Part shown: piece by piece, positions 11,501 to 64,000 of the stretch
How the letters are laid out: each line of letters opens with the position of its first letter
How positions within the stretch are numbered: the stretch's first letter is position 1
DNA from: an uncultured virus (IMG/VR IMGVR_UViG_3300042451_001437)
Taxonomy: Duplodnaviria > Heunggongvirae > Uroviricota > Caudoviricetes
IMG/VR virus record: IMGVR_UViG_3300042451_001437
DNA: 64,000 nucleotides
Strand: one strand, 5' to 3'
Notes under the pieces: model-generated
Databases searched by the model: none
What the model was told of the DNA's origin: nothing
What the model saw: the letters and a program-made list of their open reading frames with translations, nothing else
Translations under genes and position numbers: made by a program

Positions 11501-13369
11501 TTATAATCTTATTTTGATATTGAACGATACAACATCATACCAATATTTTTTAATTGGTTGTGTTGGTTTGCAAATCGCCAATAAATTACCATCAGCATCA
11601 TGGATACCCAATTGTGTGATGATAACAGGATATAAATCACCGTTTGTTGATTTAAATGATGCCCAATCTTCCGTTTGTGCAACACCCATCATATCCTTTG
11701 CTGTATCATTTGTTGATTTGAAAAATTCATCCGAAGATGCCAAACAAACAATATTTAAGGATTTTTCAGTATTGTAACTATTGTATGATAACTTATAATC
11801 AGTTGTACCAGTATAAATAAATTGTGTGCTATCCCATAGAATATCGGCACCATCTTTTGTTATGATCAATTCATATGTGTCATTACTATCCGTAGTTCTA
11901 ACATCACCTCTACTGTCAGCATTTACAGTTCCACCAGTGATATTTTTTGTTACATCATAATTTTTAACCATATTGGTTAAAGTACCACTTGTGTAAATAT
12001 AACCGTTAAAAACATTACTGAAATATGAATCCACAAGTAATGGGTGTGTAATTACAATAAACCCTTTATCCAAATAAGCGGCTCCCACACAAACATCATT
12101 TTTATAGTTGTATGTTGGTTTTTCTTGTGATCCAGGTACAAAAACTCTAGTTCCGTTTATAACCTCACTGTAGGCATCACCCCAGTTATTAAAGTTTGCA
12201 TATGGTGTTTGTACAGCATCTGTAAATAATAACACAACATTACTTTCATAAGTTGTTGAGCTAACTGTTTGTAAATCAGGTCTAACCCCGATTGATCCTA
12301 CGCTAATGTCTGGTTCAGATAATTTTTTATCTAAATTATTGTTTATACCAGCTGAATTATACGTACCATACAATTCAATTGTACTTGGGCCAGTCCAACC
12401 AGTCATAATACCCAAACGTTTTGGGTCAGCGGTACTTGATGTCGCCCCAGTATAATATGGTAATTCTAATTTAACTGTTTTACCGTCAATGATTTCACCA
12501 TATTTGTTATTTGGTATTTCAAATATCATGTATAAATCATTGGGAACTGGTAGATTCCAAGGTTTATTGGTTTCAAATTCATTGCAACCAATTGTTTGCA
12601 TAACAGTTTCATAGTATTCACCAGTATAACCTGTTGTTGGGTGTACTAACAACGCATCGGTTGTACCAGTATATGAAGATGTAATCGCTGTCCATTTTTT
12701 GGCAACACCATTAATAGTAGTTGCTACCGTTTCGTTAGTACCCGCATCTGATAAAACACCGTAAGCTGATCTAGAATATTTCTTATATTCCTCATTAGTT
12801 ATAGGTAAATTAAGGGATTTTAACAAATTAGAAAAAATTGTATTATTATCTTGTCTACCAACAAAGAAACCTGGTAAAATATCTGTTGTGTTTAATGTTG
12901 TACCACTAAAAGTGTGGTTTAATTCTTGGTATCCATTTGATAAATCAAACGGTACGCTTTCATTAACCAAAACAGCACCTTCAATGTTTTTTAGAACATT
13001 ATAATTCGTAGGGTTGTAATCATATTCAATATAACCACGGCAAGTTCCACCTGAGTTTGAGAAATCAGTATCATTGTAAGCGACCGTAAGTACGTAATTA
13101 AACCCACCGCTTGCGGCAAGCAATGTCGCATTATCACTTATGTTTGTGGTTGACTGGTATTTACCTAATACAGTGTTTGTACCTAACGTGTTTAATTTAT
13201 TATATAAACTAGTATTTTGATTAACCTCTGTATGTGTAATAACAACAGGTTGGTTTAACGTTGGTATATACTTTAACGGTTCTAGTAAATAGAACTCAAC
13301 AATACCAGCTGTACCAGTACTCACAGTTCTTTTATAATACGGGATTCTAACTTTTAATATCGCACTCAT
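11501..13369 (-). CDS. Virion structural protein (baseplate/tail-collar fibre-like C-terminus)
   Basis: C-terminal ITQLGIHDADGNLLAICKPTQPIKK parallels the end of the 910-aa paralogue. T/G/N-rich. Confidence 0.7.
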   Translation of the reverse strand: MSAILKVRIPYYKRTVSTGTAGIVEFYLLEPLKYIPTLNQPVVITHTEVNQNTSLYNKLNTLGTNTVLGKYQSTTNISDNATLLAASGGFNYVLTVAYNDTDFSNSGGTCRGYIEYDYNPTNYNVLKNIEGAVLVNESVPFDLSNGYQELNHTFSGTTLNTTDILPGFFVGRQDNNTIFSNLLKSLNLPITNEEYKKYSRSAYGVLSDAGTNETVATTINGVAKKWTAITSSYTGTTDALLVHPTTGYTGEYYETVMQTIGCNEFETNKPWNLPVPNDLYMIFEIPNNKYGEIIDGKTVKLELPYYTGATSSTADPKRLGIMTGWTGPSTIELYGTYNSAGINNNLDKKLSEPDISVGSIGVRPDLQTVSSTTYESNVVLLFTDAVQTPYANFNNWGDAYSEVINGTRVFVPGSQEKPTYNYKNDVCVGAAYLDKGFIVITHPLLVDSYFSNVFNGYIYTSGTLTNMVKNYDVTKNITGGTVNADSRGDVRTTDSNDTYELIITKDGADILWDSTQFIYTGTTDYKLSYNSYNTEKSLNIVCLASSDEFFKSTNDTAKDMMGVAQTEDWASFKSTNGDLYPVIITQLGIHDADGNLLAICKPTQPIKKYWYDVVSFNIKIRL

Positions 13370-13375
13370 TTTATA

Positions 13376-15384: not shown

Positions 15385-15764
15385 TAGTCTTTATATGTTA
15401 CTATTTTAATCGTTTCTGTTGAAAGATCTGGATCATATGCGATATAGTTATTTTCAGCTCTTTGGTTAACGCCCAAAAAACCATGAGTAAACAATATATT
15501 GTTATCCACAGAACCTCGTTTAGAGTCCTGTGTGTAGACTTCAATTGTGTTATTAACTTCTGTGGTATCATAGAATTTTATTGTTGGTATTGTTTGGCCT
15601 GTTAAGACATTGGGGTCAACACCGCTCATCTGGTTATAATTTGAGTTATCGATTAATGAAAAATATTTAATCTCATTCTTAAAACCATTGTTTATGAAAG
15701 CTTCTCTACCCTTATCTGTAAGGTATATCTCAAAAGTATACTTATTTCTTTTTATAAATCCCAT
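15384..15764 (-). CDS. Small structural protein with tail-collar-fibre-like N-terminal motif
   Basis: MGFI...IYLTDKGREAF...YFSLIDNSNY. Confidence 0.7.
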   Translation of the reverse strand: MGFIKRNKYTFEIYLTDKGREAFINNGFKNEIKYFSLIDNSNYNQMSGVDPNVLTGQTIPTIKFYDTTEVNNTIEVYTQDSKRGSVDNNILFTHGFLGVNQRAENNYIAYDPDLSTETIKIVTYKD

Positions 15765-18496
15765 TAGAAGTCAATTGTAGCTTGTATTACGACCATATCA
15801 GAATTATATTTTCTTGTTATTGGTTCTGAAAATTTACCAATAGCCACCAAAATACCATTGGTATCAAAAATACCTATTTGTGTAAACGCAACTTTATCTT
15901 GGTCAGAATTAAAAGTTGGGTTATCAGTGGTTATATATTGATTAGGTAGCACATTACAAGTTAATTGTGTTTTATATATTGTAGCTTTAATATCCGTTTC
16001 TATATTACCAAAAAAGAAAACTTCATCACCAAAACTAAAGTCTGATGAGGAAATCCCTGGTATGGTAATATAATCATTTAAATTATAGATATCCGTGTCA
16101 CTATTGTCAAGCATAAATTGATCTATGTTTACTCTAAGCGCTGATATCGTATTTTTTGTTAAAACATTTGTTGATACCGTTTGTCCAGCGCCAGCATTAT
16201 CTAAATAAAAGATCGTTATTTCACTACCCTGTGTTGGTGTGAAATTTAATTCAACACGTCTATCATCTATTGTTTCATTTGTTACAAAAACACCATATGT
16301 TGTTGCGTTTAGCAGCATACCTTTATAAAACAACCAAACAGTTGAATTATTAGGTTGTTTATCCAATTTAAGGGATATTCTGTTAGGTGTAATTGTCGAT
16401 TTATAAATCGGGTTAGCGTTTGTATTTGAATTAATAGTTGCCAACGATGGAACTGTTACAACTTGTTTAATTGTTCTAGATGTTATACTTGTACCAGTTA
16501 AATAATAAATTTGTAAAAGGTCTGGACTAACACCATATCCCTGTCCAAAAACAATAACTTGTCTATTATTAGGGCCGACAGCGTCTGTAGTTGGGTATGC
16601 GTAATATGTACCATCAGCTAAAGTGTCATCGGATGCTTGTGTTTGTACCGTACCATTAAAAATAACGATAATCTCACCCACTGGTGTGTCACCTAATTCA
16701 AAAATATCAAAACTACTAACATTAATTACTGAGTGAGAACCCAATTTATCGGCATCATAATCAATAATATCGGCATGCAACTCAAAATTAGTACCATTAA
16801 CGTTCATAACCCCAGTAACACAACCATTTGTACCTAAAAACTCACTTACATCAATGTAAGCCCAGTTTGTTGGATCTGGTTTTATAGCTGTTGTTGATTT
16901 TTGCCATAACATTAATATCTGGTTAGTTTTATAACCGATACCAGTTTGGTCATCGTAATCTTTTAAGAAAGAAAATTCCGTGTAATTAGGGTCTTCTATT
17001 TTTTTATTAAATTGGAATAGGACGTCTTTAGCAGACGCACTATTATTTTGTATGGTTGTGTAATCTTCGCAGTGCATACCTGTTATACCAGCAGTATCAA
17101 GTAACATATAAGTTACATAAAGGTATTCACCTGGTTGTAAAATACCAGCTGTGCTTGTATTACCACAAATTCCAGGTTCCGTTAAATTTAACAACGGTTT
17201 TGGTAAAGTCCAATTTCTATTACCTTTGTATGATAAAGCTGATAATAACTCAGGGTGTTCAATTATAACAACCTTTTCATCAACAAAAACTTTACCAACA
17301 ACATTTTTATCTTTTTCTTGGTCAACAAGATCGTAATAAGGGTATTTTACTATCCCTAAACCAGCTTCTGTTGTTTCGGTTAAATATTTTAATTCGGTAT
17401 CAGCAACAAACGTATAACCAATTGTATCAGCAATACCAGTTGTGAATTGTTGTTTATGCCACATTATATAAGGGACTTTAAGTTTAAAGCTTGAGCGATA
17501 AAAACCCTCACCGTAAAAATTAGAAACCGTATTATTTGTATAATGTATAACACCAATTTTACTGTTTGAATCGTAGTACCCAAAATTTATTGCTGTACCT
17601 AAGTAATCCTTTGATACAACATCATATTTTGATTTATCTACAGTTGAATCCAAACCTATAATATCCTCAATATTAATAATATTCATATTCCAAACTGGAA
17701 CATCCAATTCAGATTGCGTGTTATTATTCGAAAAATCTAATAAACCACCTTGCCAATAAGCCATCGGGCTCGATTCATCATAATAATCTTTAATTGTATC
17801 TTTACCTGGGTAAATAAAAGCATCAACCTCGTATGAATCAAACGCTGGTAAGTCACGATCAACAACTATTGTGATTGTTGTACCAGTTGTTAATCCTGTT
17901 AAATCATATGTTGACCCACCATTAACAGTTTTTACAACATACATTAAATACTGAACTGGTTCAACTGTTATTTGATCAGCTGGTACCTGTGTTGTCGTAT
18001 AATTTGTTGTATACCCACTAGTTTTAAATTTAACAAACAAGTAATCACCTTCTTTCACGGTTGTATCGTATGAAGAATTTATTGTGCCACCATTATATGT
18101 TAAATCAATTGATGTTGAAGCGGTAGCTGTCGTACCTGTTAACGGCCCTACAAGCCATAGATTTGAATCAACACTTATTGTTGAACCAGTTGTGTCATAA
18201 TTAAAAAAACCTCTTTCTATTGCTGACGTATAAACTTCATTTGGTATTGCGTTAACAATTGTAATTGGATTTAAAACATTAGACCCGTCATATGTTAACG
18301 GTAAACTTAAACCTAATACATTATCAGATGGTCTTAAAATGTTAACATTTGAGAACGAGTCGTTGGAGTAATCCATTTCACCGTCACCAAGTCCAAAATA
18401 TGTAAAATTTAATGTTCCCTCAGCTAGATTTCTCCTACCGTTATTGGTTAATTTAACATTAACCAACGGATCGTTTTTCTTAATTATATAGCTCAT
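15764..18496 (-). CDS. Baseplate/tail-collar fibre-like structural protein (910 aa)
   Basis: N-terminal KLTNNGRRNLAEG..FTYFGLGDGEMDY and C-terminal FTQIGIFDTNGILVAIGKFSEPI, resembling the two halves of the P2 gpH N-terminal (DUF3751-like) domain. Confidence 0.7.
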   Translation of the reverse strand: MSYIIKKNDPLVNVKLTNNGRRNLAEGTLNFTYFGLGDGEMDYSNDSFSNVNILRPSDNVLGLSLPLTYDGSNVLNPITIVNAIPNEVYTSAIERGFFNYDTTGSTISVDSNLWLVGPLTGTTATASTSIDLTYNGGTINSSYDTTVKEGDYLFVKFKTSGYTTNYTTTQVPADQITVEPVQYLMYVVKTVNGGSTYDLTGLTTGTTITIVVDRDLPAFDSYEVDAFIYPGKDTIKDYYDESSPMAYWQGGLLDFSNNNTQSELDVPVWNMNIINIEDIIGLDSTVDKSKYDVVSKDYLGTAINFGYYDSNSKIGVIHYTNNTVSNFYGEGFYRSSFKLKVPYIMWHKQQFTTGIADTIGYTFVADTELKYLTETTEAGLGIVKYPYYDLVDQEKDKNVVGKVFVDEKVVIIEHPELLSALSYKGNRNWTLPKPLLNLTEPGICGNTSTAGILQPGEYLYVTYMLLDTAGITGMHCEDYTTIQNNSASAKDVLFQFNKKIEDPNYTEFSFLKDYDDQTGIGYKTNQILMLWQKSTTAIKPDPTNWAYIDVSEFLGTNGCVTGVMNVNGTNFELHADIIDYDADKLGSHSVINVSSFDIFELGDTPVGEIIVIFNGTVQTQASDDTLADGTYYAYPTTDAVGPNNRQVIVFGQGYGVSPDLLQIYYLTGTSITSRTIKQVVTVPSLATINSNTNANPIYKSTITPNRISLKLDKQPNNSTVWLFYKGMLLNATTYGVFVTNETIDDRRVELNFTPTQGSEITIFYLDNAGAGQTVSTNVLTKNTISALRVNIDQFMLDNSDTDIYNLNDYITIPGISSSDFSFGDEVFFFGNIETDIKATIYKTQLTCNVLPNQYITTDNPTFNSDQDKVAFTQIGIFDTNGILVAIGKFSEPITRKYNSDMVVIQATIDF

Positions 18497-18532: not shown

Positions 18533-21500
18533 TTATGGTATTCTTATGTAATCCCTTGGATCAACGGTTTCAGCTGTTACCAAAATTGCACCGTCAAAAT
18601 CAATTTTAACTACTCTACCTTCACTTATATCTTTTAATTTTATTGTTCTTGTTACTATTCTACCAACATTTGTTTTTGTTGATGTGAAATATCCATTATC
18701 AATACCATTGTCATTTGTATCAAATAATGTATAATTATCCATAAAACCTGATACATATCTGGTAAGATTTCTAGTTATATCAGTTTTAACACTAATTGTA
18801 ATAGATTCTCCATAATTAACAACAATATTTTCATCAAAATATTTATTTCTTCCCAATACTTTGTTAAATAAAGTTGTACCAACTGTGTTATTCTCAACAA
18901 GGACAGTAACATTTGATAAACCGTTTTGATTAATGATTAATCTAACCTCTGGTTTAAATCCAGTTATTAACTCAGTGTTTTCTGGTAGAGGTGGTGCTGT
19001 CATTATTCTAGGTTTCAATTGATCTAATTTAGTTAAATCAGCTTCAAATAAAACACCAAACACTGTTTTAGCTACGTGGCCACAGGGGTTTGTTATCGTC
19101 AAACCACCAATAAACTCACCAGTTAATGGTAAACCATTATCATCTTTTTCATAATAATAATCCATTATTATGTCATTTTCTATCCTTCTAAAACCAGTTA
19201 AACCATATTCATTAACACTTCTAAGATTTGTGTTTTTAGCGTCAAATAATTTATTAACACCATTTAATAATTTAGCGTTTGTTGTTGCGCCACTAAATGT
19301 TTGTTCGGTAAAGCCCGTTTTTAATTTTAAATTACTATCAAAGAAATATAAATTACTTTTGGTTATATCATTTATTGATTCGATAGTACCTTCATAAATT
19401 TTAACCTTACACCTGTCTTTTTTAAATGTAAACTTGTTAACTAACATGAAGTCACGTTCTTCCCAATTAGTAGATAAATGCGGCTCTGTTGTGTTTGAAA
19501 ATGAACCCACACCTGTTTTTGTTCTATATAAAACGTTTCTACTAACAGTGTATTTTTTACTTTGGTAAGTTGAATTACTATTATATGTTGTACCAGTCGC
19601 AATAAAATTTAATATACCATTATCTTCAGTGGTTCTTACTAAGGTATGAAATAATGGTTGTGGGTAAAATGCTTGGTTATAAAACATCCAAATCACTTGA
19701 CCAACACGTCTTACTGGTATAAACCCACCAACATTTGTAATTGTATAGTTATTTTGTATTAAATTGGTATCTTGTGTACCACTAAAAGTCATTAAACTAC
19801 CAGTAGTACCAGTGTAATTTAAAGTTGATCCAGTTACTCTAAAATATTCTATTACATCAGAATTTTCAGGTATTGTATTTGTATCGCCAGGTAACGTTTT
19901 GTAAAACATATCAGCTATTAATATGTCTGTTGAACCAGTAAGAGGTAAAGAGTATTCGTAACCGTTTGTACTAGCAGTAGTTGGTAATAAATTTTTAACC
20001 CTGAAGGCTGATGGTCCATATGAGTAATAAAGTGTGAAAGAGGATCCAGTAGCACCTGTAATGTTTTTAACCCAGAATGGGCTATTAGCGTTTGTACCAG
20101 TTATCGGTAATTCATACCAAGCACCTGTACCACCTGTTGGTGATACCCCAGCTGTGGTACCACTCACGTTAAACCAAAAACTATATTTAGAATCTGTCGC
20201 AAAGTTAGACCCTGGGTAGTAAACCATTTGAGACAATTGATAATCATTTGTTGGGTCCCAAGTTAAAGGTCTGTTATATACGTATTCGCATAAGTTATAA
20301 ACCGCTGTTGCACCAGTTCCACTCACATAAAATTTAACAATGTCCCCGAGATTTAATTTTTGTGATGGTGAACCATCCAATATAATCGGTTCTGAGTACC
20401 TATAAGGTGCAACATTAGGTTTAACAACTTGATTGTTAACTAATTTATCGTACCCTATTGGAGTAAATTTTTTAAGATCGTAACGTTCAATAGGTATGAA
20501 ACAAGCTCTAGCACCATTCGGTCTATATATTGGGTGTATTTCAAAAGTAGCTGCTGAACCAGTTATTTTACATAAATGGTCCGTTGTTATATCTTCAACA
20601 CAAACATATAGTCTATCGACATCAACAGTTGAAACTGTTGTACCAGTTGTTGTTTCTACAACTTTTCTATAATTACTTAATTTAATTTTAACAATGTCAT
20701 TTATAACGTAATTATTTACACTAGAACTAAAGTAAGGTACCGCCTCTAATATATCTGTATATAGCTGTGTTTTGTAAACGTCATTTTCTTTTTTCCAATA
20801 ACCGTATACTGACCCGCTAATTAATTTATGTCTTTTTTTAGATATTAAACTATCCGCTAGGTTACTATTAAAATCTAGTTGATTATAATCAACAAGGCCT
20901 TCATCGTAACCAATAAAATCAATTGTTGTCGAACCAGTTATTTCAACATCATTTTTATATGATTTTAAGAATGGGTAGTTTTGTTTATTAAGGGTTACTT
21001 TTCTAATTTTTGGTGTTTTTCCTATGAAAATATTTTTTGTTAAATTAGCATTTTCAATAGTTTGCGGAGTATTACCAAGATAGTTATCGGTCGAAGTTAT
21101 TGTAAACTCTTTCTCAGCACCAGCAAAAGAATAATAAATTTGGGTATCGTCACTATAATATTGTGGTGTGTTTGTTAATTCTTTACTTCTAACGGTTAAT
21201 TCAAAATTAACGTAATCATTATTATATTTTTTCTCGTAAACGGAAACATCCCCTATTTCTGAACTGTTTTTATATTTTTCGAAATACGCACCATATAATA
21301 AACCAAAATTATTTGTTTCATCATATGATTGGTTTATGTTTAGTTTATGAACAAATTCATACCTATCAAAAGTATCACTAGTTTTAAATAAGAAACTATC
21401 AACAGTGTGATCATCGTTATAACCAATAGGTTCTATAGATAAGGCGTCTTCAAAATAATGGTTATCGATTAAACCTCTACCACCGTTAAAATACACCCTG

Positions 21501-40265: not shown

Positions 40266-40297
40266 AATTTTTTATTAATGTTAATTTTTGTTGTTTA

Positions 40298-40317
40298 GAT
40301 AAATATAGACAAAGATA
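40298..40317 (-). promoter_or_regulatory. Tandem promoter elements upstream of nrdB: TATCTTTG (host -7 type) and TATTTATC (late-type)
   Basis: TATCTTTG at 40317-40310 and TATTTATC at 40305-40298. No good -33 match. Confidence 0.5.
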
Positions 40318-40323
40318 CGATTA

Positions 40324-41736: not shown

Positions 41737-41749
41737 TTAAATTTTATTT

Positions 41750-42205
41750 TTATTGTACTTGTAAACTGTATCCAAGGTATTCTGTTTCCAATTCTTTTGT
41801 TGGCGTACACAAGCATTTTTGAATGCGTGTAATCAACTCGTAGATATGCTGACGAATGTCAACTGTGTATCTAACTTTAACTGGGTAAATAGTAGCATCC
41901 CATTCTCTGTATGCAATTACATTACCATCGTGTTTAACCACAATTCTCATCATGTCTTTAGAGGCATTTTGTTCGTAGTCTGGTGTTTCCAAGAAATGTC
42001 TTTGGTGTTCAGTGATGAAGTCTAATGCTCTGTCTTTTAAAACACTTTGAATTAACTCAACGTTCTCATCAATCGCATATTTAAAATTCATTGAGTTTAT
42101 CGCTTTGTTATTAAAACCGATAATGTTAAAGAATCTTTGAACGATAATGTTGTCGTTTAGATAAAGTGTAAATTCGAATTTACGTTGTTCTCTTTTTTCT
42201 TCCAT
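41750..42205 (-). CDS. Hypothetical protein in replication operon
   Basis: ORF track start 42232. ATG 42205 (MEEKREQRK), just after the upstream stop, is more plausible. Confidence 0.75.
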   Translation of the reverse strand: MEEKREQRKFEFTLYLNDNIIVQRFFNIIGFNNKAINSMNFKYAIDENVELIQSVLKDRALDFITEHQRHFLETPDYEQNASKDMMRIVVKHDGNVIAYREWDATIYPVKVRYTVDIRQHIYELITRIQKCLCTPTKELETEYLGYSLQVQ

Positions 42206-44265: not shown

Positions 44266-44287
44266 ATATATTTTGTATTTTTTTTGT

Positions 44288-44342
44288 AAAAAAAAGCATG
44301 GACACATACTTGGACATAATGTCCGAGTTAATATCCATGCTT
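44288..44342 (-). terminator. Long (23-bp imperfect) hairpin plus U-tract between SSB and recA
   Basis: Minus strand AAGCATGGATATTAACTCGGACA-TTA-TGTCCAAGTATGTGTCCATGCTT followed by Ts. Confidence 0.75.
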
Positions 44343-44354
44343 AAGATTTATTTT

Positions 44355-52700: not shown

Positions 52701-54020
52701 GTTTGTATCATATGTTATTACTGGCATGAATGAATTTGGATCCACATCATACAATGAAAGTACTCTAAGTGTTTTATTGGGTCTTCTAGAATCTTTTTCA
52801 CCACCATCTGGGTAAAAAAGTAAATGTATTAATAAAGCAGCAAAATCGGATAAATCTTTACCATCATTTTTTGCTTTTAAATTATTAACAGTACATAAAT
52901 CTTTAATTAAAAGATAAAAAGAATCTGTTGCAATATAACCACCAAGATAGTTGGCTTTAATTTTTGATAAAATTAGGAAAAATTCTGTTTTTTTAGGGTC
53001 TTTTGAGAAAACAAAATTAGTGTCTAAAGTAATTGATCTAGTTAGCGTGTCTAATGTATTTTTTATGCCATTAAGATCGTGCTGAACTGTTGTACCAAAA
53101 CTATTGTAAGAAGCTAAAAAGTTAAGTTGTGTGTCATTATATGTTTTAAAGGTTTTTAAATTACCCTTAAAATTACCAATAATATGATAAGGTACCCCAT
53201 TATCGTTTAAATTTGTGTTCTCATCTTTTTGGCCATCAAGTCCTTCCCCAAAAAAGAAATATGACATTGCGTTCATGTAATTGTTTAACACACCATACCC
53301 CGTAAAAGGTATGTGAGAAGCAATGTTGTTATTTAAAGGTATATATGTACTAAGATTGTAATCGTAATAGTTTTCTCTGTAGTTTTTAGAAATTTCAGTT
53401 TTACTAAATGAATCAGTACCATTACTAAAAACATCATCAATATGTCTTGGTGTTATTGGTTTAACAAAAGGTGCTGTAGCTAATATAAGGTTTTTATCAT
53501 CATAAACATATGTACCGTAATGTTTATTTTTTATGATCGGGTCATCTAATAAATCATAACCGTTTTTTGTTTTTAAACCATTAATTATATCAAAGTCAAT
53601 TTTATCATCTTTTTCATAATCATTATAATAATAAAAATCATAAATCCCACCAATTTTTAATATTGTATGTATTGGTAATTCAACCAGACCCTGGGTTGTT
53701 TTAAAAGCTGTTGTTAAAAATTTAATATCAATATAACCACTATTTGATGGGCATTTAATTTGTCTTAAAAACATCTGGCTACTTTTAAAAAATTTACCAG
53801 TTTTAAATTCTTTTACAATATTTTGAGCAAAAACAGTATGATTAGTAAAAGTATCCCAACCTAACGTAGTAATGTCAGCGTCATCTCTTTCCTTTTGAAG
53901 TGTATCAAAAGTACCGTCAATAGTTTCCCCTGTAACGCTACTCATCATAGCGTTTATATCGATATCATTGTTTAGTAGATATCTTTTATCTAAAAAATCT
54001 TTATTATTATAAAACGGCAT
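46743..54020 (-). CDS. Baseplate hub / tail-associated lysin (gp27/VgrG-like segment + M23 peptidase + phage tail lysozyme)
   Basis: YSCTVTSLGNAAIQP...GTYWITNVSHKITPNTMTTTFKGVR hub-like motif; M23 HEGVD, LYGH, HLHFEV; lysozyme-like AGVLGNMYIET..GLIQWNG. Confidence 0.82.
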   Translation of the reverse strand: MPFYNNKDFLDKRYLLNNDIDINAMMSSVTGETIDGTFDTLQKERDDADITTLGWDTFTNHTVFAQNIVKEFKTGKFFKSSQMFLRQIKCPSNSGYIDIKFLTTAFKTTQGLVELPIHTILKIGGIYDFYYYNDYEKDDKIDFDIINGLKTKNGYDLLDDPIIKNKHYGTYVYDDKNLILATAPFVKPITPRHIDDVFSNGTDSFSKTEISKNYRENYYDYNLSTYIPLNNNIASHIPFTGYGVLNNYMNAMSYFFFGEGLDGQKDENTNLNDNGVPYHIIGNFKGNLKTFKTYNDTQLNFLASYNSFGTTVQHDLNGIKNTLDTLTRSITLDTNFVFSKDPKKTEFFLILSKIKANYLGGYIATDSFYLLIKDLCTVNNLKAKNDGKDLSDFAALLIHLLFYPDGGEKDSRRPNKTLRVLSLYDVDPNSFMPVITYDTNIFLQLADFLKNIVNELAEKQHEQVAYLLLSLWSKEFNTEKSSKLSAIDKLGTYVVYPSCGGEIGIKELFSNKNYTYHKTNNVSAFVESNDLLNPYITGLTKSSFTTYSDINNDLLDALNFDYKIFYENLPNNVAINTTYSEFLDQKALASTLKYSEKGTIPNSVTDNDNFFLPKYDQSPYNTGLTTLNITKPMVTSNLDRYDDLYIIANTTNPDGIEGLNFNNRTIVNNTSKLFWFDQARNIFPNKGTFRSKKGEHLKDIKVYDYFENEQYGYGDNVEELYEWGDPLVDELRIFDYSRFQKDTSLYLTYSKEFIDGIVDIFGFDKLEDFRSLFKNFADTSTKNYFTEAFNTFNFQSLIKHTNIFGYSNLPETLTLDKAYTRDEISAFLCGYSGYFIEFASKNDVSKIINYSLTIGQENKAKAVIDEFMNAKITINNYSTTGSLYVDNTGDNPEGLRLNSNIFNPIIMYASETRTADSIINKLDYRLLFRTLLFGDQPVSAYDVKTIPGDYYTLVEKYLNNKPILGVEPTLEKTLLPELVRTFFITLNIEITEGNLKLLLPYIKNYIYNLFNENIFNGYVNNIREDRSGRPGYYNATIFPSAEGAVNKKYDYILDDYIITEKVVNGVLTKVAEQKYLYNTFDELKAVEKLKEFIDYTNKNILTKQIESFNTGLKRFAELSKSKVDGLARLADSGNLDEYNEELTKSKIEARTGTYYRIKTLYDRSVSFNDIDLNDQRLIKKTSKDLAKISVNDILNYPLFFNFNVETDDTDYENCVDKKLTADVNDGKLKDLYDYAMVIDRGNNPYGTKVLANIDALKKVIAEDLKNATQVDNTLRSKSMWSVLSTLASDHEFLLLPLTSYVNLNGAIKDSEDPFEVAHDMFGVFNNLEMFDSNPAFIFQLGSLTSNVSAGNKQKRNNLSEFDLSNTFCLDIETSQLGTNNQGIILDEGIPNDILNSNVSSFIVDFGNKNQNMFQNIQLSTDEFANTEESIFTQVNLASTENVAQLSSGKLFTAMENRSYSCTVTSLGNAAIQPLTYFYIKNVPLFYGTYWITNVSHKITPNTMTTTFKGVRQPISKKPTANTSILAQLLKTAKINAESTGYVDPNNRVPTPTDGYVYAYNNRTSVAGGTDSGFALFSQATTANSGVYVNYSGQWIAASYLNLMTNGDQNNKLLIKALIAYLYNNASLLAGNQEPAEAVKYFADIVLYDMFVKLGMGRSISNLLSTYPTSGNQYEQMLLEFSQKPLAEVAAYLKHDQPLKGIKTTLIATKTGNVIGNDGAGTVTGVTVSYPKDIEIPSSKSENSKSDFIGASYWVSDKPANNFQELQGFSRYDLTNTVFKTTGSIFPDGNHNGSIEETFTALQILPNTGGLSSRWSINVNPKLYTENGDAIFVDVYTPYRTPDGYPTKILNGISQYKLIETIGDYKAWLNTNLTQNDKDRITTAYNNGSDIVLLPFDTSKITKGKVGEKYFVVLRYGKAPFVPKTHIDARLKYNRSIGINNSGNSPILNSNNFFANIDTKPAVVLGFGTVSGQTSPLSGEFVYGASYGDPYLPGGRGTDETTYQADVLGAISNGKSYISFIAISPEDQLKATEAKDRTIKSYINRSVLGSEQTLQDWTIVNKAITSDQIYKPPVRRFADGTKTKISGWVDPLKEMVVTSKYGMRTLNGETRMHEGVDLKASVGTSVYSVLPGKVVFVGPCNPGGYGRAVIVAHSDKNVSTLYGHISAEKVSVGATVSAGDIIALSGDEGSAKNGGAHLHFEVGEGIATDYTSFIGLKKVDPASYLAYSAAGPDKKTINSAETEANILEIKQYLQARGWSKYEVAGVLGNMYIETITTFNPYSTNAKDFNGYPSLGLIQWNGRYIAGGTKDVEKGFDVIGRTVVAQLNYMVEGPTKRTTDQFRAQLKKEIQQNFTVATSNVGGLSPDELQAYVAAYVFAWKTEVCFNCNQGWDKYHSEESNTAPYKRSVNAVKFLKRMNDTNDKLKW

Positions 54021-57278: not shown

Positions 57279-60200
57279 TTATTGGTAAAGCTCTGGGTAG
57301 AGTATTGCTAATTGTGTTGTGTCATTTTGCTTAATAGACTCAGGCTCATTAGTTGTACATATATTAATAATAGGATCATTTTTGTATTTTGTAAAGAGTT
57401 TTAGGTTTCTAATAATTGTCGGATCTGGTTTACTTGTTTCTCTAAATGTAACCGTATAATCCGCAATAGAGCCTTTTAATAGCTTATTACAGTAATCAAA
57501 CTTGTCCATAACCTTTGTCATATTATCAACACCAAAAACATTTTTGTTTATTTTTTTTATTGTATTATCGTTTGATCCGCTCATATAAGTGAAAATATCA
57601 CCCAAATCAGTATCATATTTTTTAACAAAAGTTTCAATAAGTTTAAACGTATCCTCGATTGATTTTTTTATTTTTTTAGTTTGTGAGGTAACATACGCTT
57701 CTGACCTTATTGGGTTATTTCTAATACTAGCTGGTGGGTTAATACCAGTTTTTAATATTTTATCCATTATAGCGTCAATATGTATTGATTTGTTAACATA
57801 TAAGTTATATAAAAATTCTATGAATAAAACATCTTGCATGGCTGACATTTTCACGATTTCACCGTATGTTATACCAGTTGTTGTACCAGTTGTTGTACCA
57901 GTTGTTGTACCAGTTGTTGATCCGCTGATAAAACCGTTTAATTTAAACTTTTGCTGATCTGGTAATGAGTTAACATACTCTTCTGTAATGGTGTAATCAT
58001 AACCCATTAAAAGGTTAAGATTCTTTAATTGCGTATTTAATGTTGTACCAGTTAAATTAGGGTTATTTTCATTAAATAAGTAATAATTTATATTTCTTAT
58101 AAAACTATTTTGTGAGTTAGTCTTTTTATTAACACCATAATAGAATAAAATATCAGAAACAGTATCACCAGTTGTTGACCCTGTTGGATTTAAAGTAACC
58201 CCGCTAAGGTTATTAATTTGTAAATCAAACGCATAAGATGGTGTATAAGCTAAATCAATATCATTATTTTTACTTTCAGAATCATCTGATAACATAAATT
58301 CTAAAGTTTTATTACTAAAATCTAATAATTCATAGTTAATTTTTTCGAAAGTGTATTTCATCTCATAAACACCTTGAGCATATACATTATTGGTTGTATT
58401 TAAAACACTACCATCATCACCTCTTGTAACTAAAGCATATGAAGTTGTTTCTAAAGCCCTGGCACTATCACTTGTACCATATTCATAAGGGTTAAATGAG
58501 AAATTTTCATTTGTAACAGGCCCAGTTATTGGTAATGCTAATTGACCAAAATTAAAAGTATTTGTAGCTGTTGTACCATTGGAATCTAATGCGTTATTTG
58601 TTGGTAAAAAATTATCAAAATTATATTGGTTAGGTAAGTCACCAAGCGTTGTGTAACCAAAAACTTTTTTGATGTACTCCATATTTCTGGTATATTCCTT
58701 TATAACCTCATCTGAAGTGGTATTATCTATGTTGTTCTTCATTTGTTTAAAGAAATACAACCCGTTACCAAGTGATGCGTATTGGTTTATCGTAAACCCA
58801 CTTGTTGGGGAAAGTGAATTGGCGTCTGTTAAAATGTTATAAACATCTGCTAAATTAATTAAATCACCACCATCTATTGTTAGCTTTCTATATTGCTCAT
58901 AAGGGTTATAACCAAACATTGTACTACCAGTTACTGGTGTTGTTAGTTTTTTACCGTTAGGTATTACTTCATATAATTTAGCCCTACCCTCTGAATATGT
59001 TGCATCATAACCGTATAACGGTAATGATAATCCAGCCATAACAACTGACATTTTAGCTATGGAATCGTTTAACGCATTTAAAGTCGTTTCAGTTTCAGAA
59101 TTTTTATTGGCGTAAAAACTAGTAAATTGGTTATCAATATAACTAACAAAATCTTTAACATGTTGTGTATCAAGATTCTTATAAAAGTTTTTAAACGTCT
59201 TAAGGTTATCAGCTGGGTCAAACCATATACCTAATGTATTTGTGGCAATTTTTGTTCTAAATTCTTTAGCAAAATTGTCAGCAATATCATTATATATTTT
59301 TATACTATTTGTATCCCTAAAGTATATACCGCCTGTTTCAGATATACCATTAAAATTATTTGTATATCCGTTTGTAAAATTACCCTGGAAGTATTTACTA
59401 CTCCTACCGTTATTAGTCGCACCAGTTAAAGCTGTAAAATTATAAGGTAAACCTTTACCATCACCAATTTTAAACATGTATTCTTGTGGATGTAAGTTTA
59501 ACTTTAAGGCTTCAAATTCCTCTCCTTTATTGTTATTTCTAGTTAAGAAGAATGGGTGTTGTTTAAAGACATCACCAAGTTCCACATATCTTTTTTCTTC
59601 AGCAACTGTATTAAATATTTCTGAATATGTTAAACCACTAAGATTTATGCTTGGTGTTGTTGTACCAGAAATGTTATCAATTATCTCACTAATAGTTGTA
59701 CCACTAACAGATAAAGGTTTTTTGTAGTTTTTATTTCTTAATACATTATTAATAACTTTGTATTTACCTATTGTTTTGTCATCGGTTTTACCAATAAAAT
59801 CCGCAAAACCTTTTACATAATCACCAAAGCTGTAATATAACTCACTAAATAAATCAAAGTACTGAATATCATATCTTTGTATGTAGTACCTACCATATTC
59901 TTGTCTAAAAGCAAATTCACCGAAATTAGAATGATCGATTGCTGTCCAAGTTTTTGTATCTGTTGGTAATGTTTTTGTATATATACCATTAACAATAGGG
60001 TATTGCGCAACTTTTCTTACGTAATATTGACCCTGATAGGTAACACAAGTTTCTGCTTTGTATTCTTTATTTGGGTCAAATACTGTCGCACCCGTTAAGT
60101 TGTGATAATACGTACCACCAGCTAATTTAGGTAATAATCTTTCACTAATAACACCAATAGTACCATAAGGTATTGGTAAACCTTCTGTTGAAGGTGTTAT

Positions 60201-63200
60201 TAATTCAGCTGCCGCAACTATCGGAATTAAATCCAATGAATTTTCAGCAAAGAAATCTTGTTCAAGATTTATTAAATCCCTCTCCCTTCTATCCGTATTA
60301 GCAAATGTTCTTTCATCGTAAACATCTGTGTTAGCGTAATAGTTAAATGTTAACGCATTTTGTAATTGGTCAACATATCTTCTTAAGCCTTGTCCACCAA
60401 TATATTTAAATGATAAATTAACCTTAGCAAGCATTGGTTGTACACCGATACCTTCAGGATTTAAATCCCATAGTAACGGATCATAACTAATATTCAAACT
60501 ATTAATAATGATTTTTGTGTGGTAAAAATCACCAATTCTTAAAACAGATACTGGTGGTCTACCAAAAGCTGTGTTTTTAGCATCACAACCAGGTACACCA
60601 ATATCTTTAGTAATTGTATCACCAGGTCTCATACATTGCTGTAAGAAAGTTAATCTTGCGTTTAAACCTTCTGGTGTCATCGCATGGAATGCTGGGCTAA
60701 AATATTTTAATTTTTGTTTTAAACTATCAAAAATAATTGGTGACTCTTCTGATAAATAATCAAAGTAATCACACTCAGTTAATAATTTATTGAGTATTCT
60801 TTGCGCAATTTCTCTTTTAGTTACATTTGTTGTTGGAACTTCTTCCTCACGATATAACGGTGGTGTTTCCGCTGGTGGTTCCTTTCTTTCCAAAGGTATT
60901 ACTTTTGGTATAAGTTCAGCGTTAATTTCAACTCTTCTCGCAAATGAGGCAATTGGCGATAAGTTACCACAAACAATGTCAGATTCTTCTCTTGCTATTT
61001 GTTCAAAAGGTTTTGTTCTTACAGCTATACATGTACCAATATATTTTTCTGCTATTTTAGTACCATCCTTTAGTATAAAATTATCTTTATATTTAAACCA
61101 CTCATCTTTTGTTTTGACCATATAATAAGTTTCGTTTTGACCATAGCTTATTGGGAAATAGTCAACATTATCTTTGGTTTTAAGTGGTCTACCAAATAAT
61201 TGGGTGTACTCGTTAGGTTCTGGGTTTGTTTGGAATAAATCGTCTAATGTCTGGCCTCTTGAAACAATATCAAAACTAATCTCTTGTTTAGAATTAATGT
61301 CACCTCTTAAAATAACAATTCTTTTTGATTTTTCCAAATCACCATGTAGTTTATTAACATCAGCTTCTGATATTATTTCTTTACCGTCTGTTGTAAAACA
61401 TTTAACATCAGCATCACTCATTACATCAAGTATTAACCATTTTGTAACTGAAACAAATCTTCTTGAAGCCAATTTATCGTTATATCTTTGCAAAGCCGCT
61501 GCATCTTGACCAGGTGCTGATGGTGATGCGTGTGCAACCATACTAAATCTTAAATTATAATCTTTAGTACTAGCATAAGCTTTTGCTGAATAAGTTTTTG
61601 CTATAGATTGGTATTGTTCCTTATAACCATATGATTTTTGGGGATATGTTTTTCTATCTTCTGTAAAAAAGTGTTGGTGTTCTGCTGGTGCGTTAGTACC
61701 TATTGTATAGTCATATCTAATCCAAGCTAATCTTTCGGCAGGTGATAAATTAGAATTACCGCCAACAGCAACTTCTTTAAACTCTGAGTTTTGGTCAAGT
61801 TTTGTACCTCTCGCCAAACTATCATATATTTCATAATAATCGGAATATTTGTCAACAACAAAATTATCTGGATTTTTATATGAATTTTTTTGTATTGGAA
61901 TGTCGTTCTCAAAGAATAAATTAAACTGTGTGTTTTTTATAGTTTCTAATCTTGGGGTTTCTATCTTAACACCTTCTTGCTGGAAACTACCAGATGATTC
62001 AACTTTAGTTCTTATTTTCTCATTAGGTAATCTAATATCTAAATCAGATATAACCTTTTTAAAATATTCAATATCACTATCACTAAATACACCCCATATT
62101 CTCGCCAATTCAAATATGTCATAATCCAAACAACCAGCCCAAAAAGCCGCCAATAATTCGTCAACTTCACCATCCGTTAATTGGGCAAATTCTTTATCAA
62201 CCAATAAGTTCATTATTGTTGGGTGATCGACAACGATGTCCCATGACAACGTACCAGATCTTTCCGTGTTGTTATATGTATATATTGGTTCTGGTCTACC
62301 TAAAAATTGGTGAGTAGTCCAGTTTGTTGTTGTATCATCGGTAAATCTAATGTTATAAGGTGGGAACCACATGATTCTTCCACCATTAGAACCTTTTTCA
62401 CAAGGTGGTAATTCATTAAATTGCGCTGAATCTCTCCAAGCTAAATTCTCAATGGAGAACATATATTTTCTCGCCCTTTTTTCACCAAAAGCTTCAACAA
62501 CGGCATCACCCAAACCATCACCTAATCTACCATAACCTTCGTTAACGTTAAGTGCTGATGGGTGTATATTTAAGTTTCCGTATCTATCCAATACAGAATT
62601 TCTTTCTTTTCTATTTAATTCTTTCCATCTAATAAGATCTGTTATTTTCGAGAATGGCTTTGCTTTTGTCCAAGCTCTACAAAGAGTAACCTCATTATAC
62701 ATTCTCTCATCATCTCTCTTACCAGCTGTATCCAAACCAGGTACTAAATAAGTATAACCAATAACCTCATCTTTTTTGTTTTTTCTTGTGGTTCTAAGTG
62801 GAGTAATTACACCAGAACTTTTTGGTGAAAAGTGGTATCCATCGGTAAATTTTGTTTTTGTTTGGTCAATGGATCTTATTGCACGGTTACTATAACTACT
62901 TTCTAGTAATTTTTGTGTGACATCCATTATTGAACAATCTCTAAATCTATCAGCAGAAGTTCTGGATAAAATATCGTTATCAAGATCAGCATCCCAATTA
63001 AGTTTACCATTTTTACCATCTTCTATTGTCCAACGTGTTTCAACTGACTCACCTCTCCAAATAAATGAAGTTTGAACTGATCCGTATTTTGAAACATCTT
63101 CAACACCTGGTTCTACGAAATAGTTGGGTACACCACCGTTTTCTCCCGTACCAATTCTAATAGCCTTTGTTAACTCGCTATTAGCTTTAACCTGTAAACC

Positions 63201-64000
63201 ATTATTATCTTGTAACAAATAGAATATACTAACATTTTTACCAGCTGTAATGTATGGAGTGAAAACAACATCCTCAGTACCTTTTTGGGCTTTAGCTGTT
63301 CTTTTAAATAACCTTTTATCAGCACCACTTAATTTGTTTGTATAATCTGGTGAATATTTGTTATTACCTAAATTAGAAAACAAGAAAAATCTTTGAGCTC
63401 TACCCGTTTCATCTAATCTATCAATAACTCTATTCTCTAATTTATCTTCTATTCTTGAATCACCGAAACAAGTTGGTCTTAGTGTAACAGAATCATCTGA
63501 AAAGAAAGCGGATGTTAAACCACCTAAACCACCAATATCTGAAATAAAGCTAGCTAATTTACCTAAACCGCCCTTAAATGTTGTGATATCAGCATTACCC
63601 CTTTCAAGAATTGATGATGGATCTTTAATGAACTCAATAACTTTGAGTGGGTTTGTTAACATATCATCAATGGTTGTTAAACCAGCAACTTCCTGAGCCG
63701 TTTTAGCTAATAACCTTGTGTTTAAATGGAATTTTAATTGCAATGCCGCTACTTGTGCCAACACCGTATCATTTTTTAAAGTAGGTTCGGTTAACAAATT
63801 TGCTATATCCAAATCAGCACCTAATAGAGCACTCAATGGTGTTGATGCTGTAGGTATATTTAAGAAATCACCCATTCTTATTTCTGTTGGGTCAGCATTA
63901 CTTAATTTGTCCTGAGTAAGATATGGGTTTTGTGGTGTGTTTGGTGTTTGATTTAATAATAAATTTTGTAATATTTCATATACGACAACATTTTCAGCAC
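57279..64000 (-). CDS. Large tail-tube initiator/baseplate protein with OmpA-like insertion; start probably beyond the window
   Basis: Frame stays open from the track start 63875 to 64000 (hand-checked). Tube-like motifs W....FLGRPEPIYTY..TERSGTLSW and PP...LRIGDF..KIIINSLNISY. Confidence 0.7.
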   Translation of the reverse strand, partial: AENVVVYEILQNLLLNQTPNTPQNPYLTQDKLSNADPTEIRMGDFLNIPTASTPLSALLGADLDIANLLTEPTLKNDTVLAQVAALQLKFHLNTRLLAKTAQEVAGLTTIDDMLTNPLKVIEFIKDPSSILERGNADITTFKGGLGKLASFISDIGGLGGLTSAFFSDDSVTLRPTCFGDSRIEDKLENRVIDRLDETGRAQRFFLFSNLGNNKYSPDYTNKLSGADKRLFKRTAKAQKGTEDVVFTPYITAGKNVSIFYLLQDNNGLQVKANSELTKAIRIGTGENGGVPNYFVEPGVEDVSKYGSVQTSFIWRGESVETRWTIEDGKNGKLNWDADLDNDILSRTSADRFRDCSIMDVTQKLLESSYSNRAIRSIDQTKTKFTDGYHFSPKSSGVITPLRTTRKNKKDEVIGYTYLVPGLDTAGKRDDERMYNEVTLCRAWTKAKPFSKITDLIRWKELNRKERNSVLDRYGNLNIHPSALNVNEGYGRLGDGLGDAVVEAFGEKRARKYMFSIENLAWRDSAQFNELPPCEKGSNGGRIMWFPPYNIRFTDDTTTNWTTHQFLGRPEPIYTYNNTERSGTLSWDIVVDHPTIMNLLVDKEFAQLTDGEVDELLAAFWAGCLDYDIFELARIWGVFSDSDIEYFKKVISDLDIRLPNEKIRTKVESSGSFQQEGVKIETPRLETIKNTQFNLFFENDIPIQKNSYKNPDNFVVDKYSDYYEIYDSLARGTKLDQNSEFKEVAVGGNSNLSPAERLAWIRYDYTIGTNAPAEHQHFFTEDRKTYPQKSYGYKEQYQSIAKTYSAKAYASTKDYNLRFSMVAHASPSAPGQDAAALQRYNDKLASRRFVSVTKWLILDVMSDADVKCFTTDGKEIISEADVNKLHGDLEKSKRIVILRGDINSKQEISFDIVSRGQTLDDLFQTNPEPNEYTQLFGRPLKTKDNVDYFPISYGQNETYYMVKTKDEWFKYKDNFILKDGTKIAEKYIGTCIAVRTKPFEQIAREESDIVCGNLSPIASFARRVEINAELIPKVIPLERKEPPAETPPLYREEEVPTTNVTKREIAQRILNKLLTECDYFDYLSEESPIIFDSLKQKLKYFSPAFHAMTPEGLNARLTFLQQCMRPGDTITKDIGVPGCDAKNTAFGRPPVSVLRIGDFYHTKIIINSLNISYDPLLWDLNPEGIGVQPMLAKVNLSFKYIGGQGLRRYVDQLQNALTFNYYANTDVYDERTFANTDRRERDLINLEQDFFAENSLDLIPIVAAAELITPSTEGLPIPYGTIGVISERLLPKLAGGTYYHNLTGATVFDPNKEYKAETCVTYQGQYYVRKVAQYPIVNGIYTKTLPTDTKTWTAIDHSNFGEFAFRQEYGRYYIQRYDIQYFDLFSELYYSFGDYVKGFADFIGKTDDKTIGKYKVINNVLRNKNYKKPLSVSGTTISEIIDNISGTTTPSINLSGLTYSEIFNTVAEEKRYVELGDVFKQHPFFLTRNNNKGEEFEALKLNLHPQEYMFKIGDGKGLPYNFTALTGATNNGRSSKYFQGNFTNGYTNNFNGISETGGIYFRDTNSIKIYNDIADNFAKEFRTKIATNTLGIWFDPADNLKTFKNFYKNLDTQHVKDFVSYIDNQFTSFYANKNSETETTLNALNDSIAKMSVVMAGLSLPLYGYDATYSEGRAKLYEVIPNGKKLTTPVTGSTMFGYNPYEQYRKLTIDGGDLINLADVYNILTDANSLSPTSGFTINQYASLGNGLYFFKQMKNNIDNTTSDEVIKEYTRNMEYIKKVFGYTTLGDLPNQYNFDNFLPTNNALDSNGTTATNTFNFGQLALPITGPVTNENFSFNPYEYGTSDSARALETTSYALVTRGDDGSVLNTTNNVYAQGVYEMKYTFEKINYELLDFSNKTLEFMLSDDSESKNNDIDLAYTPSYAFDLQINNLSGVTLNPTGSTTGDTVSDILFYYGVNKKTNSQNSFIRNINYYLFNENNPNLTGTTLNTQLKNLNLLMGYDYTITEEYVNSLPDQQKFKLNGFISGSTTGTTTGTTTGTTTGITYGEIVKMSAMQDVLFIEFLYNLYVNKSIHIDAIMDKILKTGINPPASIRNNPIRSEAYVTSQTKKIKKSIEDTFKLIETFVKKYDTDLGDIFTYMSGSNDNTIKKINKNVFGVDNMTKVMDKFDYCNKLLKGSIADYTVTFRETSKPDPTIIRNLKLFTKYKNDPIINICTTNEPESIKQNDTTQLAILYPELYQ
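57872..57919. repeat. Perfect 12-bp tandem repeat x4 (TACCAGTTGTTG) encoding TTGT repeats
   Basis: Four exact copies read directly; protein SGSTTGTTTGTTTGTTTGIT. Confidence 0.95.

Follow-up and report, generated by a model that had tools for sequence, protein, structure and literature searches.

Results

Motif-Rich Proteins of the Window

The stretch of DNA analyzed here (64,000 nucleotides; IMG/VR record IMGVR_UViG_3300042451_001437; in the following, the window) belongs to an uncultured giant T4-like phage, and the element in question is the four-residue motif [ST]-G-x-T, which recurs in several of its virion proteins. The window has a G+C content of about 31% and every long open reading frame (ORF) lies on the minus strand. 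According to Pfam and PHROG matches, it encodes gp6-like and gp25-like baseplate wedge proteins, NrdA and NrdB, a DnaB-like helicase, a UvsX-like recombinase, and a gp32-like protein, as well as a tape-measure-like protein of 2425 amino acids (aa) with M23 peptidase and lysozyme domains. Window bases 57889–64000 are identical to bases 1–6112 of a public viral contig of 66,101 bases (CheckV completeness 22%), and the remaining 60 kb of this contig code for T4-type tube, sheath, and portal proteins, a prohead protease, a gp23-like capsid protein, DNA polymerase B, and several glycosyltransferases (GTs). Judged by gp6 and the capsid protein, the closest cultured phages are Flavobacterium phage immuto, Microcystis phage Mel-JY01, and Rhodothermus phage RM378 (26–42% identity); no cultured relatives of the motif-rich proteins were found in the phage collection.

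The motif was counted in every ORF of 100 aa or more (41 in total), and each count was compared with 500 composition-preserving shuffles of the same ORF.

11501–13369, minus strand: 622-aa protein of the distal baseplate/fibre module; 8 sites against 1.05 expected, a number reached in 0 of 500 shuffles
15764–18496, minus strand: 910-aa protein; 5 sites against 1.45 expected (p 0.012)
18533–26575, minus strand: 2680-aa protein; 23 sites against 3.24 expected (z 11; 0 of 500 shuffles)
57279–64000, minus strand (ORF 57279–63998): open 2239-aa ORF, the C-terminal part of a giant protein that leaves the window; 16 sites against 1.91 expected (z 10; 0 of 500 shuffles)
46743–54020, minus strand: tape-measure-like 2425-aa protein, internal part (PF01551 and PF18013); 5 sites against 2.14 expected (p 0.08, marginal)
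34539–36771, minus strand: gp6-like and gp25-like core wedge proteins (PHROG baseplate wedge families); 0 sites against 0.66 and 0.10 expected

The first four entries, referred to below as the carriers, were selected after the counts had been seen. Pooled, they contain 52 sites, as compared with 7.7 expected from whole-protein shuffles, 8.7 from shuffles within 60-aa windows, and 10.0 from shuffles within 30-aa windows (z 13.8–16.0). An initial annotation, made from the sequence by eye, had given the same counts of 8, 5, 23, and 16 for these proteins and about 60 for the structural ORFs, in good accordance with the total of 62 (52 + 10) obtained here for the 17 ORFs of the structural module; the enrichment over shuffled controls on which its proposal depended is present. 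Its statement that the motif saturates the virion proteins was, however, too strong. The other 13 ORFs of the structural module hold 10 sites against 5.8 expected (z 1.6), and the motif is concentrated in a subset of virion proteins and not in all of them. The 24 non-structural ORFs contain 3 sites against 2.4 expected, in line with the initial annotation. Each of the three reads [ST]-G-K-T, and in the UvsX/RecA-like protein the site resembles a P-loop. No site occurs in the gp6-like or the gp25-like protein, as had been stated, but with such low expectations this absence has no weight.

Within the carriers, the sites of the 622-aa protein are found at residues 106, 155, 234, 246, 307, 323, 478, and 520, and those of the 910-aa protein all fall within residues 103–204. 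Homologs of the latter in related loci possess 4–17 sites against 0.9–1.7 expected. The density in the 2680-aa protein is highest at residues 2087–2428, and 16 of the 16 sites in the open 2239-aa ORF lie at residues 1302–2041 of the part inside the window. The giant protein to which this ORF belongs starts at base 8117 of the overlapping contig and comprises about 2908 aa in total; its N-terminal 705 aa, beyond the window, contain no site (0.77 expected). The label of tube initiator previously given to this ORF was not confirmed, and neither Pfam nor PHROG matches were obtained for it. For the 622-aa protein there was no Pfam, PHROG, or PDB match.

A Sharp and Directional Pattern at the Protein Level

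An unbiased scan of the structural ORFs returned [ST]GxT as the top gapped tripeptide pattern. Over all 17 structural ORFs, without selection, TGxT reaches z 12.1 and the runner-up patterns z 5.9, and in a comparison with T4 the best of about 24,000 patterns in 21 structural proteins attains only z 5.8. For the phages related to this one (the clade), patterns were compared in 227 distinct ORFs (400 aa or longer) that had been selected for their location, irrespective of motif content. The observed-to-expected ratios (O/E) are given below.

[ST]G.T: O/E 5.85 (1498 observed, 256 expected)
Mirror pattern T.G[ST]: O/E 1.05
[ST]G.S: O/E 1.55
[ST]A.T: O/E 2.99
D, P, N, S, or T at position 1, in the place of Gly: O/E 0.84–1.24
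Hydrophobic residue followed by G.T: O/E 1.00
Charged or polar residue followed by G.T: O/E 0.79

Clade-wide, the residue at x is seldom Lys (0.6-fold), Pro (1.2-fold), or Arg (2.2-fold), is frequently Ala, Cys, Thr, or Ser (9–13-fold), and occurs at 3–8-fold for the others. The x position had been described as free; many residues are indeed found there, but it is not fully free, with K, P, and R disfavored and A, C, T, and S favored. The pattern can thus be described as a motif in which x is rarely K, P, or R and in which Ala is partly accepted in place of Gly. It is also distinct from N-x-S/T (0.99–1.1-fold). As had been proposed, it differs from the general O-glycosylation motif of Bacteroidota, D-[ST]-[AILVMT], which is not enriched either (0.95–1.08-fold), with 31 occurrences against 28.7 expected in the four carriers and 767 against 810 clade-wide.

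Several simpler causes can be set aside. A motif at the DNA level is excluded, as the nucleotide pattern A[CG]TGGT...AC[AT] is confined to the coding frame (28 occurrences there, 0 in the other two sense frames, and 1 on the opposite strand); the preference for ACT or AGT at position 0 reflects a general codon-pair bias for NNT before Gly, which extends to codons outside the motif and to further proteins. Composition or low complexity is excluded as well, since the excess survives shuffling within 30-aa windows and the mirror motif is not enriched. Richness in Thr, Gly, and Ser is insufficient, for a 5316-aa (G-T-S)n collagen-like ORF of a relative has 19 sites where 151 are predicted. A shared repeated domain is excluded in that no BLASTP matches at E < 1e-3 exist between or within the carriers, which have no Pfam or PHROG family in common and contain no Pfam repeat families. 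No repeated fold was found. Finally, a generic property of fibre proteins is excluded by outgroups that stay near expectation, i.e., T4 (18 sites against 13.1 expected, 1.37-fold), Flavobacterium phage immuto (22 against 11.9), and the corresponding modules of Mel-JY01 (5 against 4.8) and LR756508 (2 against 1.7).

Tandem Arrays and Isolated Sites

Two tandem repeats in the window, both detected by Tandem Repeats Finder, encode the motif.

57867–57919, minus strand: 12-bp tandem repeat encoding (Thr-Gly-Thr-Thr)n with the motif head to tail; 4.4 copies, 97% matches, score 99
22262–22301, minus strand: 21-bp tandem repeat in the gene of the 2680-aa protein, encoding P-T-G-T-T-T-T twice; 1.9 copies, 94% matches

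The 12-bp repeat had been noticed initially as an amplifier of the motif and is real, and the 21-bp repeat covers residues 1426–1439 of its protein. In the relative G005, a 521-aa protein encoded upstream of the portal gene (ORF 118543–120108) displays (T-G-I-T)x16 head to tail. Its ortholog in the present phage (L007:3319–4695) has only SGAT-SGTT, and array copy number therefore shifts strongly between relatives.

Such arrays invite the explanation that the motif is a neutral by-product, replication slippage creating (ACT GGT ACA ACA)n arrays in tolerant loops and decay leaving TGxT relics behind. The two repeats and the differing copy numbers in relatives are what this explanation would predict, as is a 2–2.7-fold over-representation of short spacings (3–5 residues, and 7–13 residues with the excess at 7–9 and 11–13). 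However, 1033 of 1301 distinct instances are isolated, 64% of the gaps exceed 30 residues, and there is no dominant period. The residues that a single step from ACA would place at x diverge widely (K 0.6-fold, P 1.2-fold, and R 2.2-fold against A 13-fold and S 8.6-fold), residues that are not such neighbors (Y, L, V, H, and C) are enriched 5–10-fold at x, and G and the final T are held while x changes. Isolated instances, a skewed spectrum at x, and the retention of G and T indicate selection on the motif itself; the x spectrum largely refutes neutral slippage, which we consider very improbable.

The flanks of the 1301 instances are close to uninformative (at most 0.28 bit per position), with a mild lean to V, Y, F, L, or I at -1 and to N or G at +5. 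Regular spacing, conserved flanks, and internal similarity, by which structural tail-fibre repeats are recognized, were all absent. A contrasting case of a structural fibre repeat is provided by proteins of the baseplate/fibre module of immuto (L087:31093–38457), in which a contiguous motif of the S-H-A-E-G type reaches z values of up to 24.

Turnover of Sites in Variable Parts of Outer Proteins

Beyond the window, the same phage has 5 sites in the sheath protein (1.12 expected), 5 in a 545-aa collagen-like protein (0.66 expected), and 3 in the capsid protein of 527 residues (0.48 expected), namely at residues 156, 185, and 259, whereas the tube protein has none. In the sheath, 5 of 5 sites are located in a middle part that cannot be aligned to T4 gp18. 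Capsid sites 185 and 259 belong to a segment (165–278) covered by no gp23 alignment and a weak alignment ends at site 156, so that all three are outside the firmly aligned gp23 block.

More than 110 full-length homologs of the 622-aa protein (37–100% identity) are encoded on contigs of up to 362 kb. In 112 of them the mean is 5.3 sites against 0.93 expected, and a single one has no site; this homolog, P0082 (0 against 0.52 expected), is encoded on a contig of 201,916 bases and is also lower in T and G contents. An alignment of 61 homologs contains 310 sites where 53.6 are expected. One site, P-T-T-G-[YW]-T-G-E, is nearly fixed, occurring in 55 of the 61 sequences; two further sites are frequent (37 and 18 sequences), and each of the others is present in 1–13 sequences, with x changing while G and T stay fixed. 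Parsimony on the tree of these 61 sequences requires at least 102 gains or losses in 20 site regions, and 209 of the 310 sites fall into the least conserved quartile of the alignment, in its gap-rich parts. Sites in the C-terminal 640 aa of the 2680-aa protein, aligned with 18 homologs, likewise tend toward variable columns. Across the module, the O/E is at least 3 in 72 of 77 related loci, including loci with a homolog of only 25–30% identity. In the complete relative G005 (298,833 bases), nine ORFs with p < 0.01, among them the orthologs of the four carriers and the capsid protein, hold 78 sites against 8.8 expected, and the sheath ortholog has 4 against 1.12 (p 0.027).

An AlphaFold model of the 622-aa protein (mean predicted local distance difference test score (pLDDT) 82.9, and 83–95 at the sites; predicted template modeling score 0.81) places 6 of the 8 sites in coil, where a helix, strand, or long loop precedes them, and the other 2 at strand ends. 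Coil accounts for 59% of all Ser and Thr in this model, no different from the share among the sites, and coil location is therefore no proof of exposure. A model of the C-terminal 640 aa of the 2680-aa protein is of low quality (mean pLDDT 51, and below 50 where most sites lie); 4 of its 10 sites are in blocks with pLDDT of at least 58, beside or between predicted strands, and one of them in a short helical turn. Searches with the 622-aa protein gave nothing at E <= 0.001 in Foldseek, only a generic N-terminal beta-barrel within the range of chance in VIA-align (Z at most 7.2), and only unnamed viral clusters in the ESM Atlas.

These data bear on the explanation that [ST]-G-x-T is an unmodified, lineage-specific structural or physicochemical device, for example at the passage from a strand end into a loop (a Ser/Thr cap, a Gly turn, and Thr), and is favored by selection because it helps exposed loops to fold, stay soluble, or resist proteases. 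It would account for the preference for V, Y, F, L, and I at -1, for the several sites that directly follow a strand, for the favored small residues A, S, and T at x, and for the one site that is near-invariant together with its neighbors, and the immuto repeat with z 24 demonstrates that short fibre motifs driven by structure do exist. On the other hand, no excess is present in the beta-rich T4 proteins of the fibre, sheath, or Ig-like type (gp34, 0 against 2.0 expected; Hoc, 1 against 1.0; total 1.37-fold), nor in the nearest outgroups. Flanks say almost nothing, spacing is irregular, and the secondary-structure contexts are mixed, which argues against one structural role. A strict Thr at +3, instead of Ser, Val, or Ile, coupled to Ser or Thr at position 0 is hard to derive from turn propensities, and the (TGxT)n arrays of 4 to 16 units behave as linkers and not as turns. 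On balance, a purely structural device seems unlikely, although it is the most serious of the competing explanations.

Conserved Glycosyltransferases and a Variable Sugar Island

No modifying enzyme is encoded inside the window, as stated initially, and the same contig carries five genes with GT-family matches 30–66 kb past it. Directly after the dUTPase gene, about 30 kb past the window, a 479-aa fusion (contig 36426–37865) consists of a PF13712 (Glyco_tranf_2_5) domain and a second GT2 domain, and opens the following region.

Contig 35547–41816 (L006:9547–15816), with counterparts in relatives (L095 and L119–L131): variable sugar island from dUTPase to PhoH, with the PF13712 gene at its head

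In the present phage the island continues with RgpF, WbsX (E 4e-91), a HAD-like protein, and PhoH; a 276-aa GT2 (contig 43560–44390) is encoded three genes past PhoH, and a GT1 gene lies directly after the capsid gene at the end of the contig. Of the 22 clade records, 17 have the PF13712 domain (38–83% identity), including 5 of 5 with a completeness of 90% or more. It was found in none of the 4 outgroups, though immuto and Mel-JY01 possess other GT2 genes. The capsid-adjacent GT1 (6 of 22 records) and WbsX (3 of 23 records) are restricted to near relatives and were rejected as the clade-wide enzyme. No matches were obtained when solved structures were searched by sequence with the PF13712 protein, the GT1, and the profile of the 622-aa protein.

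The surroundings of the PF13712 gene were read in 15 phages chosen for having it. A dUTPase gene is found just upstream in 13 of 15 and PhoH downstream in 13 of 15, and 13 of 15 islands contain further recognizable sugar genes, which are very different in kind. RgpF and WbsX are shared by the present phage and G002. NeuB is encoded in G004, G005, G007, and G008, accompanied by a CMP-transferase in G004 and G008 and by GT29-like genes in G004 and G005. G005 has a Maf_flag10-like ORF (28.7 bits, with a Pfam cut-off of 34.6 bits) with homologs in G007 and G008. GDP-mannose dehydratase and related epimerases together with GT10/GT11 fucosyltransferase-like genes are found in G013 and G016, UDP-GlcNAc 2-epimerase in G010, G014, and G020, RmlC and RmlD in G020, and UDP-galactopyranose mutase in G023; methyl-, acetyl-, and carbamoyl-transferases occur in the islands as well. 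Past PhoH, 12 of 14 islands retain a block of four genes, one of them coding for the GT2 of about 276 aa. With the PF13712 gene and the post-PhoH GT2 retained and the content between them varying, two conserved GTs thus flank a serotype-like variable island in this clade.

Two side observations concern this region. The PhoH of G010 (L123:12377–15415) reaches 1012 aa through added LAGLIDADG and homing-endonuclease domains, which look like an intein-type insertion. In G023, a phage of 313 kb, a TnpB/Cas12f-like ORF (OrfB_IS605 and TNB domain; L131:3233–4486) is situated a few kb upstream of the island.

Discussion

A trans-acting factor of this lineage best explains a motif that is sharp, directional, and lineage-specific, keeps its number while its positions move, resides in variable outer parts, and forms arrays, and O-glycosylation is the leading candidate because of the conserved enzymes. 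We therefore propose, with belief and doubt about evenly balanced, that [ST]-G-x-T may constitute an O-glycosylation acceptor signal on exposed loops and linkers of outer particle proteins, the putative targets being distal baseplate/fibre proteins, outer sheath domains, and the variable insertion of the major capsid protein. The initial annotation had read the motif as a recognition sequon; behavior as a short signal that is due neither to composition nor to a DNA motif nor to a repeated fold supports that idea, while its assumptions of a free x and of saturated virion proteins were too strong.

According to this proposal, the clade-conserved soluble GT-A enzyme with the PF13712 domain would transfer the first sugar to Ser or Thr in the host cytoplasm; Gly would make room for its approach, and the strict Thr at +3 would be read as a recognition element. 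Variable island genes might then extend the glycan differently in each phage lineage, for example with a rhamnan-type RgpF/WbsX set in the present phage and with NeuB/CMP-transferase/GT29 or fucose, rhamnose, or galactofuranose sets in relatives, and the outcome would be a lineage-specific sugar coat. The statistics, clade distribution, and turnover of the motif, the conserved enzymes, and the variable island are observations; activity of the enzymes toward these proteins, the choice of the modified residue, and the function of the coat are inferred. A broader version, which we put forward more tentatively, would extend to a whole clade of aquatic T4-like phages of 150–360 kb, in which a sequon [ST]-G-{K,P,R}-T is read by the PF13712 priming enzyme and a hypervariable island builds differing glycans composed of nonulosonic acids, rhamnose, fucose, or galactofuranose with methyl, acetyl, and carbamoyl groups.

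Several points weigh against O-glycosylation of the motif. The co-occurrence of enzyme and motif opposes one clade to its outgroups, a single evolutionary event, and any clade-specific gene would give the same pattern; clade-wide counts are, moreover, inflated by kinship of the sequences. At the P-T-T-G-[YW]-T-G-E site the neighboring residues are conserved too, as expected for a structural element. The coil share of the sites in the 622-aa model matches that of all Ser and Thr, and the model of the 2680-aa protein has low quality around most of its sites; support for exposure is indirect, from the preference for variable, gap-rich alignment regions and for the sheath and capsid parts that do not align to T4. 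In G005, the remaining ORFs, apart from the collagen-like giant, have about 37 sites against about 32 expected, so that the motif is not avoided there. The GT1 beside the capsid gene is confined to near relatives, whereas the motif is clade-wide. Finally, phage GTs also modify DNA or host surface glycans (PMC12619734), and the island sits among genes of nucleotide metabolism, i.e., dUTPase, PhoH, and, in G005, a thymidylate-synthase homolog and a deoxynucleoside monophosphate kinase, which leaves room for DNA as the target.

Another trans-acting factor of the clade might also read the motif, be it an enzyme for a different Ser/Thr modification (phosphorylation, acylation, or nucleotidylation), an assembly chaperone, or a decoration protein that binds to it. 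Lineage specificity, turnover, and flanks without information fit such a factor equally, and chaperone-type genes such as the one for a ClpB-like protein in G005 are present in the clade. Yet Pfam scans of 50 contig ORFs, 62 of the 176 listed G005 ORFs, and 214 island ORFs disclosed no kinase or other protein-modifying family, and the same scans gave many GTs. We regard this explanation as rather improbable, less so than slippage and more so than a structural device.

One of the known systems closest to the proposed O-glycosylation is SgtA of Clostridioides difficile, which adds O-GlcNAc to Thr in Gly-Pro-Thr repeats of BclA3 (PMC7157674). It is likewise a soluble GT-A-type enzyme that attaches the first O-linked sugar to Thr, Ser being tolerated, in a Gly-x-Thr context of a structural surface protein, and every Thr of (GPT)n stands in T-G-P-T, an instance of [ST]-G-x-T. 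Relatives of the present phage, too, carry giant (G-T-S)n collagen-like genes that adjoin GT1 genes. In contrast to BclA3, the sites reported here are mostly isolated in loops of non-collagen proteins, arrays have a period of 4 and not 3, Pro at x is not favored (1.2-fold), and the candidate enzyme is not encoded adjacent to its substrates. A collagen-like (G-x-T)n substrate of period 3 is not what was found, since 1033 of 1301 instances are isolated and the (G-T-S)n giant is depleted of sites (19 against 151).

Soluble enzymes are also known to O-glycosylate exposed Ser and Thr of flagellin in the cytoplasm (PMC11339370, PMC4065374). Maf and FlmG resemble the proposed system in that exposed Ser/Thr of a self-assembling surface polymer are modified in the cytoplasm before assembly with donor sugars that vary (PMC11339370, PMC4065374, PMC7591256), and NeuB in four relatives and the weak Maf_flag10-like ORF in G005 add to the likeness. 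They differ by the sharp four-residue motif found here, as no sequon is known for Maf enzymes (PMC11339370), and neither Maf_flag10 (PF01973) nor a nonulosonic-acid pathway was detected among 50 ORFs scanned on the 22%-complete contig.

In mycobacteriophages, phage-encoded GTs are reported to decorate capsid and tail proteins (Freeman et al., 2023, cited in PMC12619734). A GT gene beside structural genes is common to both cases, the GT1 gene following the capsid gene here. There, however, glycans are described at the C-termini of capsid and tail-tube subunits (PMC12619734), while the sites considered here are internal, have a defined motif, and are spread over fibre, sheath, and capsid insertions; capsid sites at 156, 185, and 259 of 527 residues and a tube without any site differ from such a C-terminal arrangement. 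The recently described "moraphages" (200–307 kb, mostly from freshwater, with predicted Flavobacteriia hosts, four core GT families, and chaperone genes; PMC12619734, 2025) have a capsid protein related to that of Rhodothermus phage RM378, as does the present phage, and this lineage may include it. Unlike the present analysis, that paper names no acceptor and no motif. A published TGxT or SGxT glycosylation sequon was found neither among the 25 full-text literature matches listed of 661 nor in broader searches on phage virion glycosylation.

GT islands are common in large aquatic phages. For those of a probably related lineage, DNA, the host surface, and the virion have been considered as targets without a decision among them (PMC12619734), and a clade-wide, acceptor-like motif on outer particle proteins gives this question a concrete handle. 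Should the proposed O-glycosylation be true, virion glycosylation would be widespread outside the mycobacteriophages, and a conserved priming step would be linked to a serotype-like variable glycan. Cytoplasmic protein O-glycosylation in bacteria and phages would then have its first sharply defined sequon, which would also provide a minimal O-glycosylation tag usable in glyco-engineering, something that cytoplasmic systems such as Maf do not offer (PMC11339370).

Additional Observations

The collagen-like giant of G005 (bases 139607–155557) is a 5316-aa ORF composed almost entirely of G-T-S triplets (30% S, 28% G, and 20% T). Two GT1 genes adjoin it and the capsid gene is close by; its product may be a glycosylated fibre of the head or neck. 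The public contig of the present phage ends inside the homologous GT1 gene (L007:18102–20000), and the assembly may therefore break at a (G-T-S)n-type repeat. An 818-aa ClpB-like AAA+ chaperone (L097:15608–18064) also adjoins the giant in G005 and fits the chaperone genes reported for "moraphages." Within the window, the product of an ORF at 4152–4958 on the minus strand is a sigma factor of the sigma-70 type that contains regions 2 and 4.

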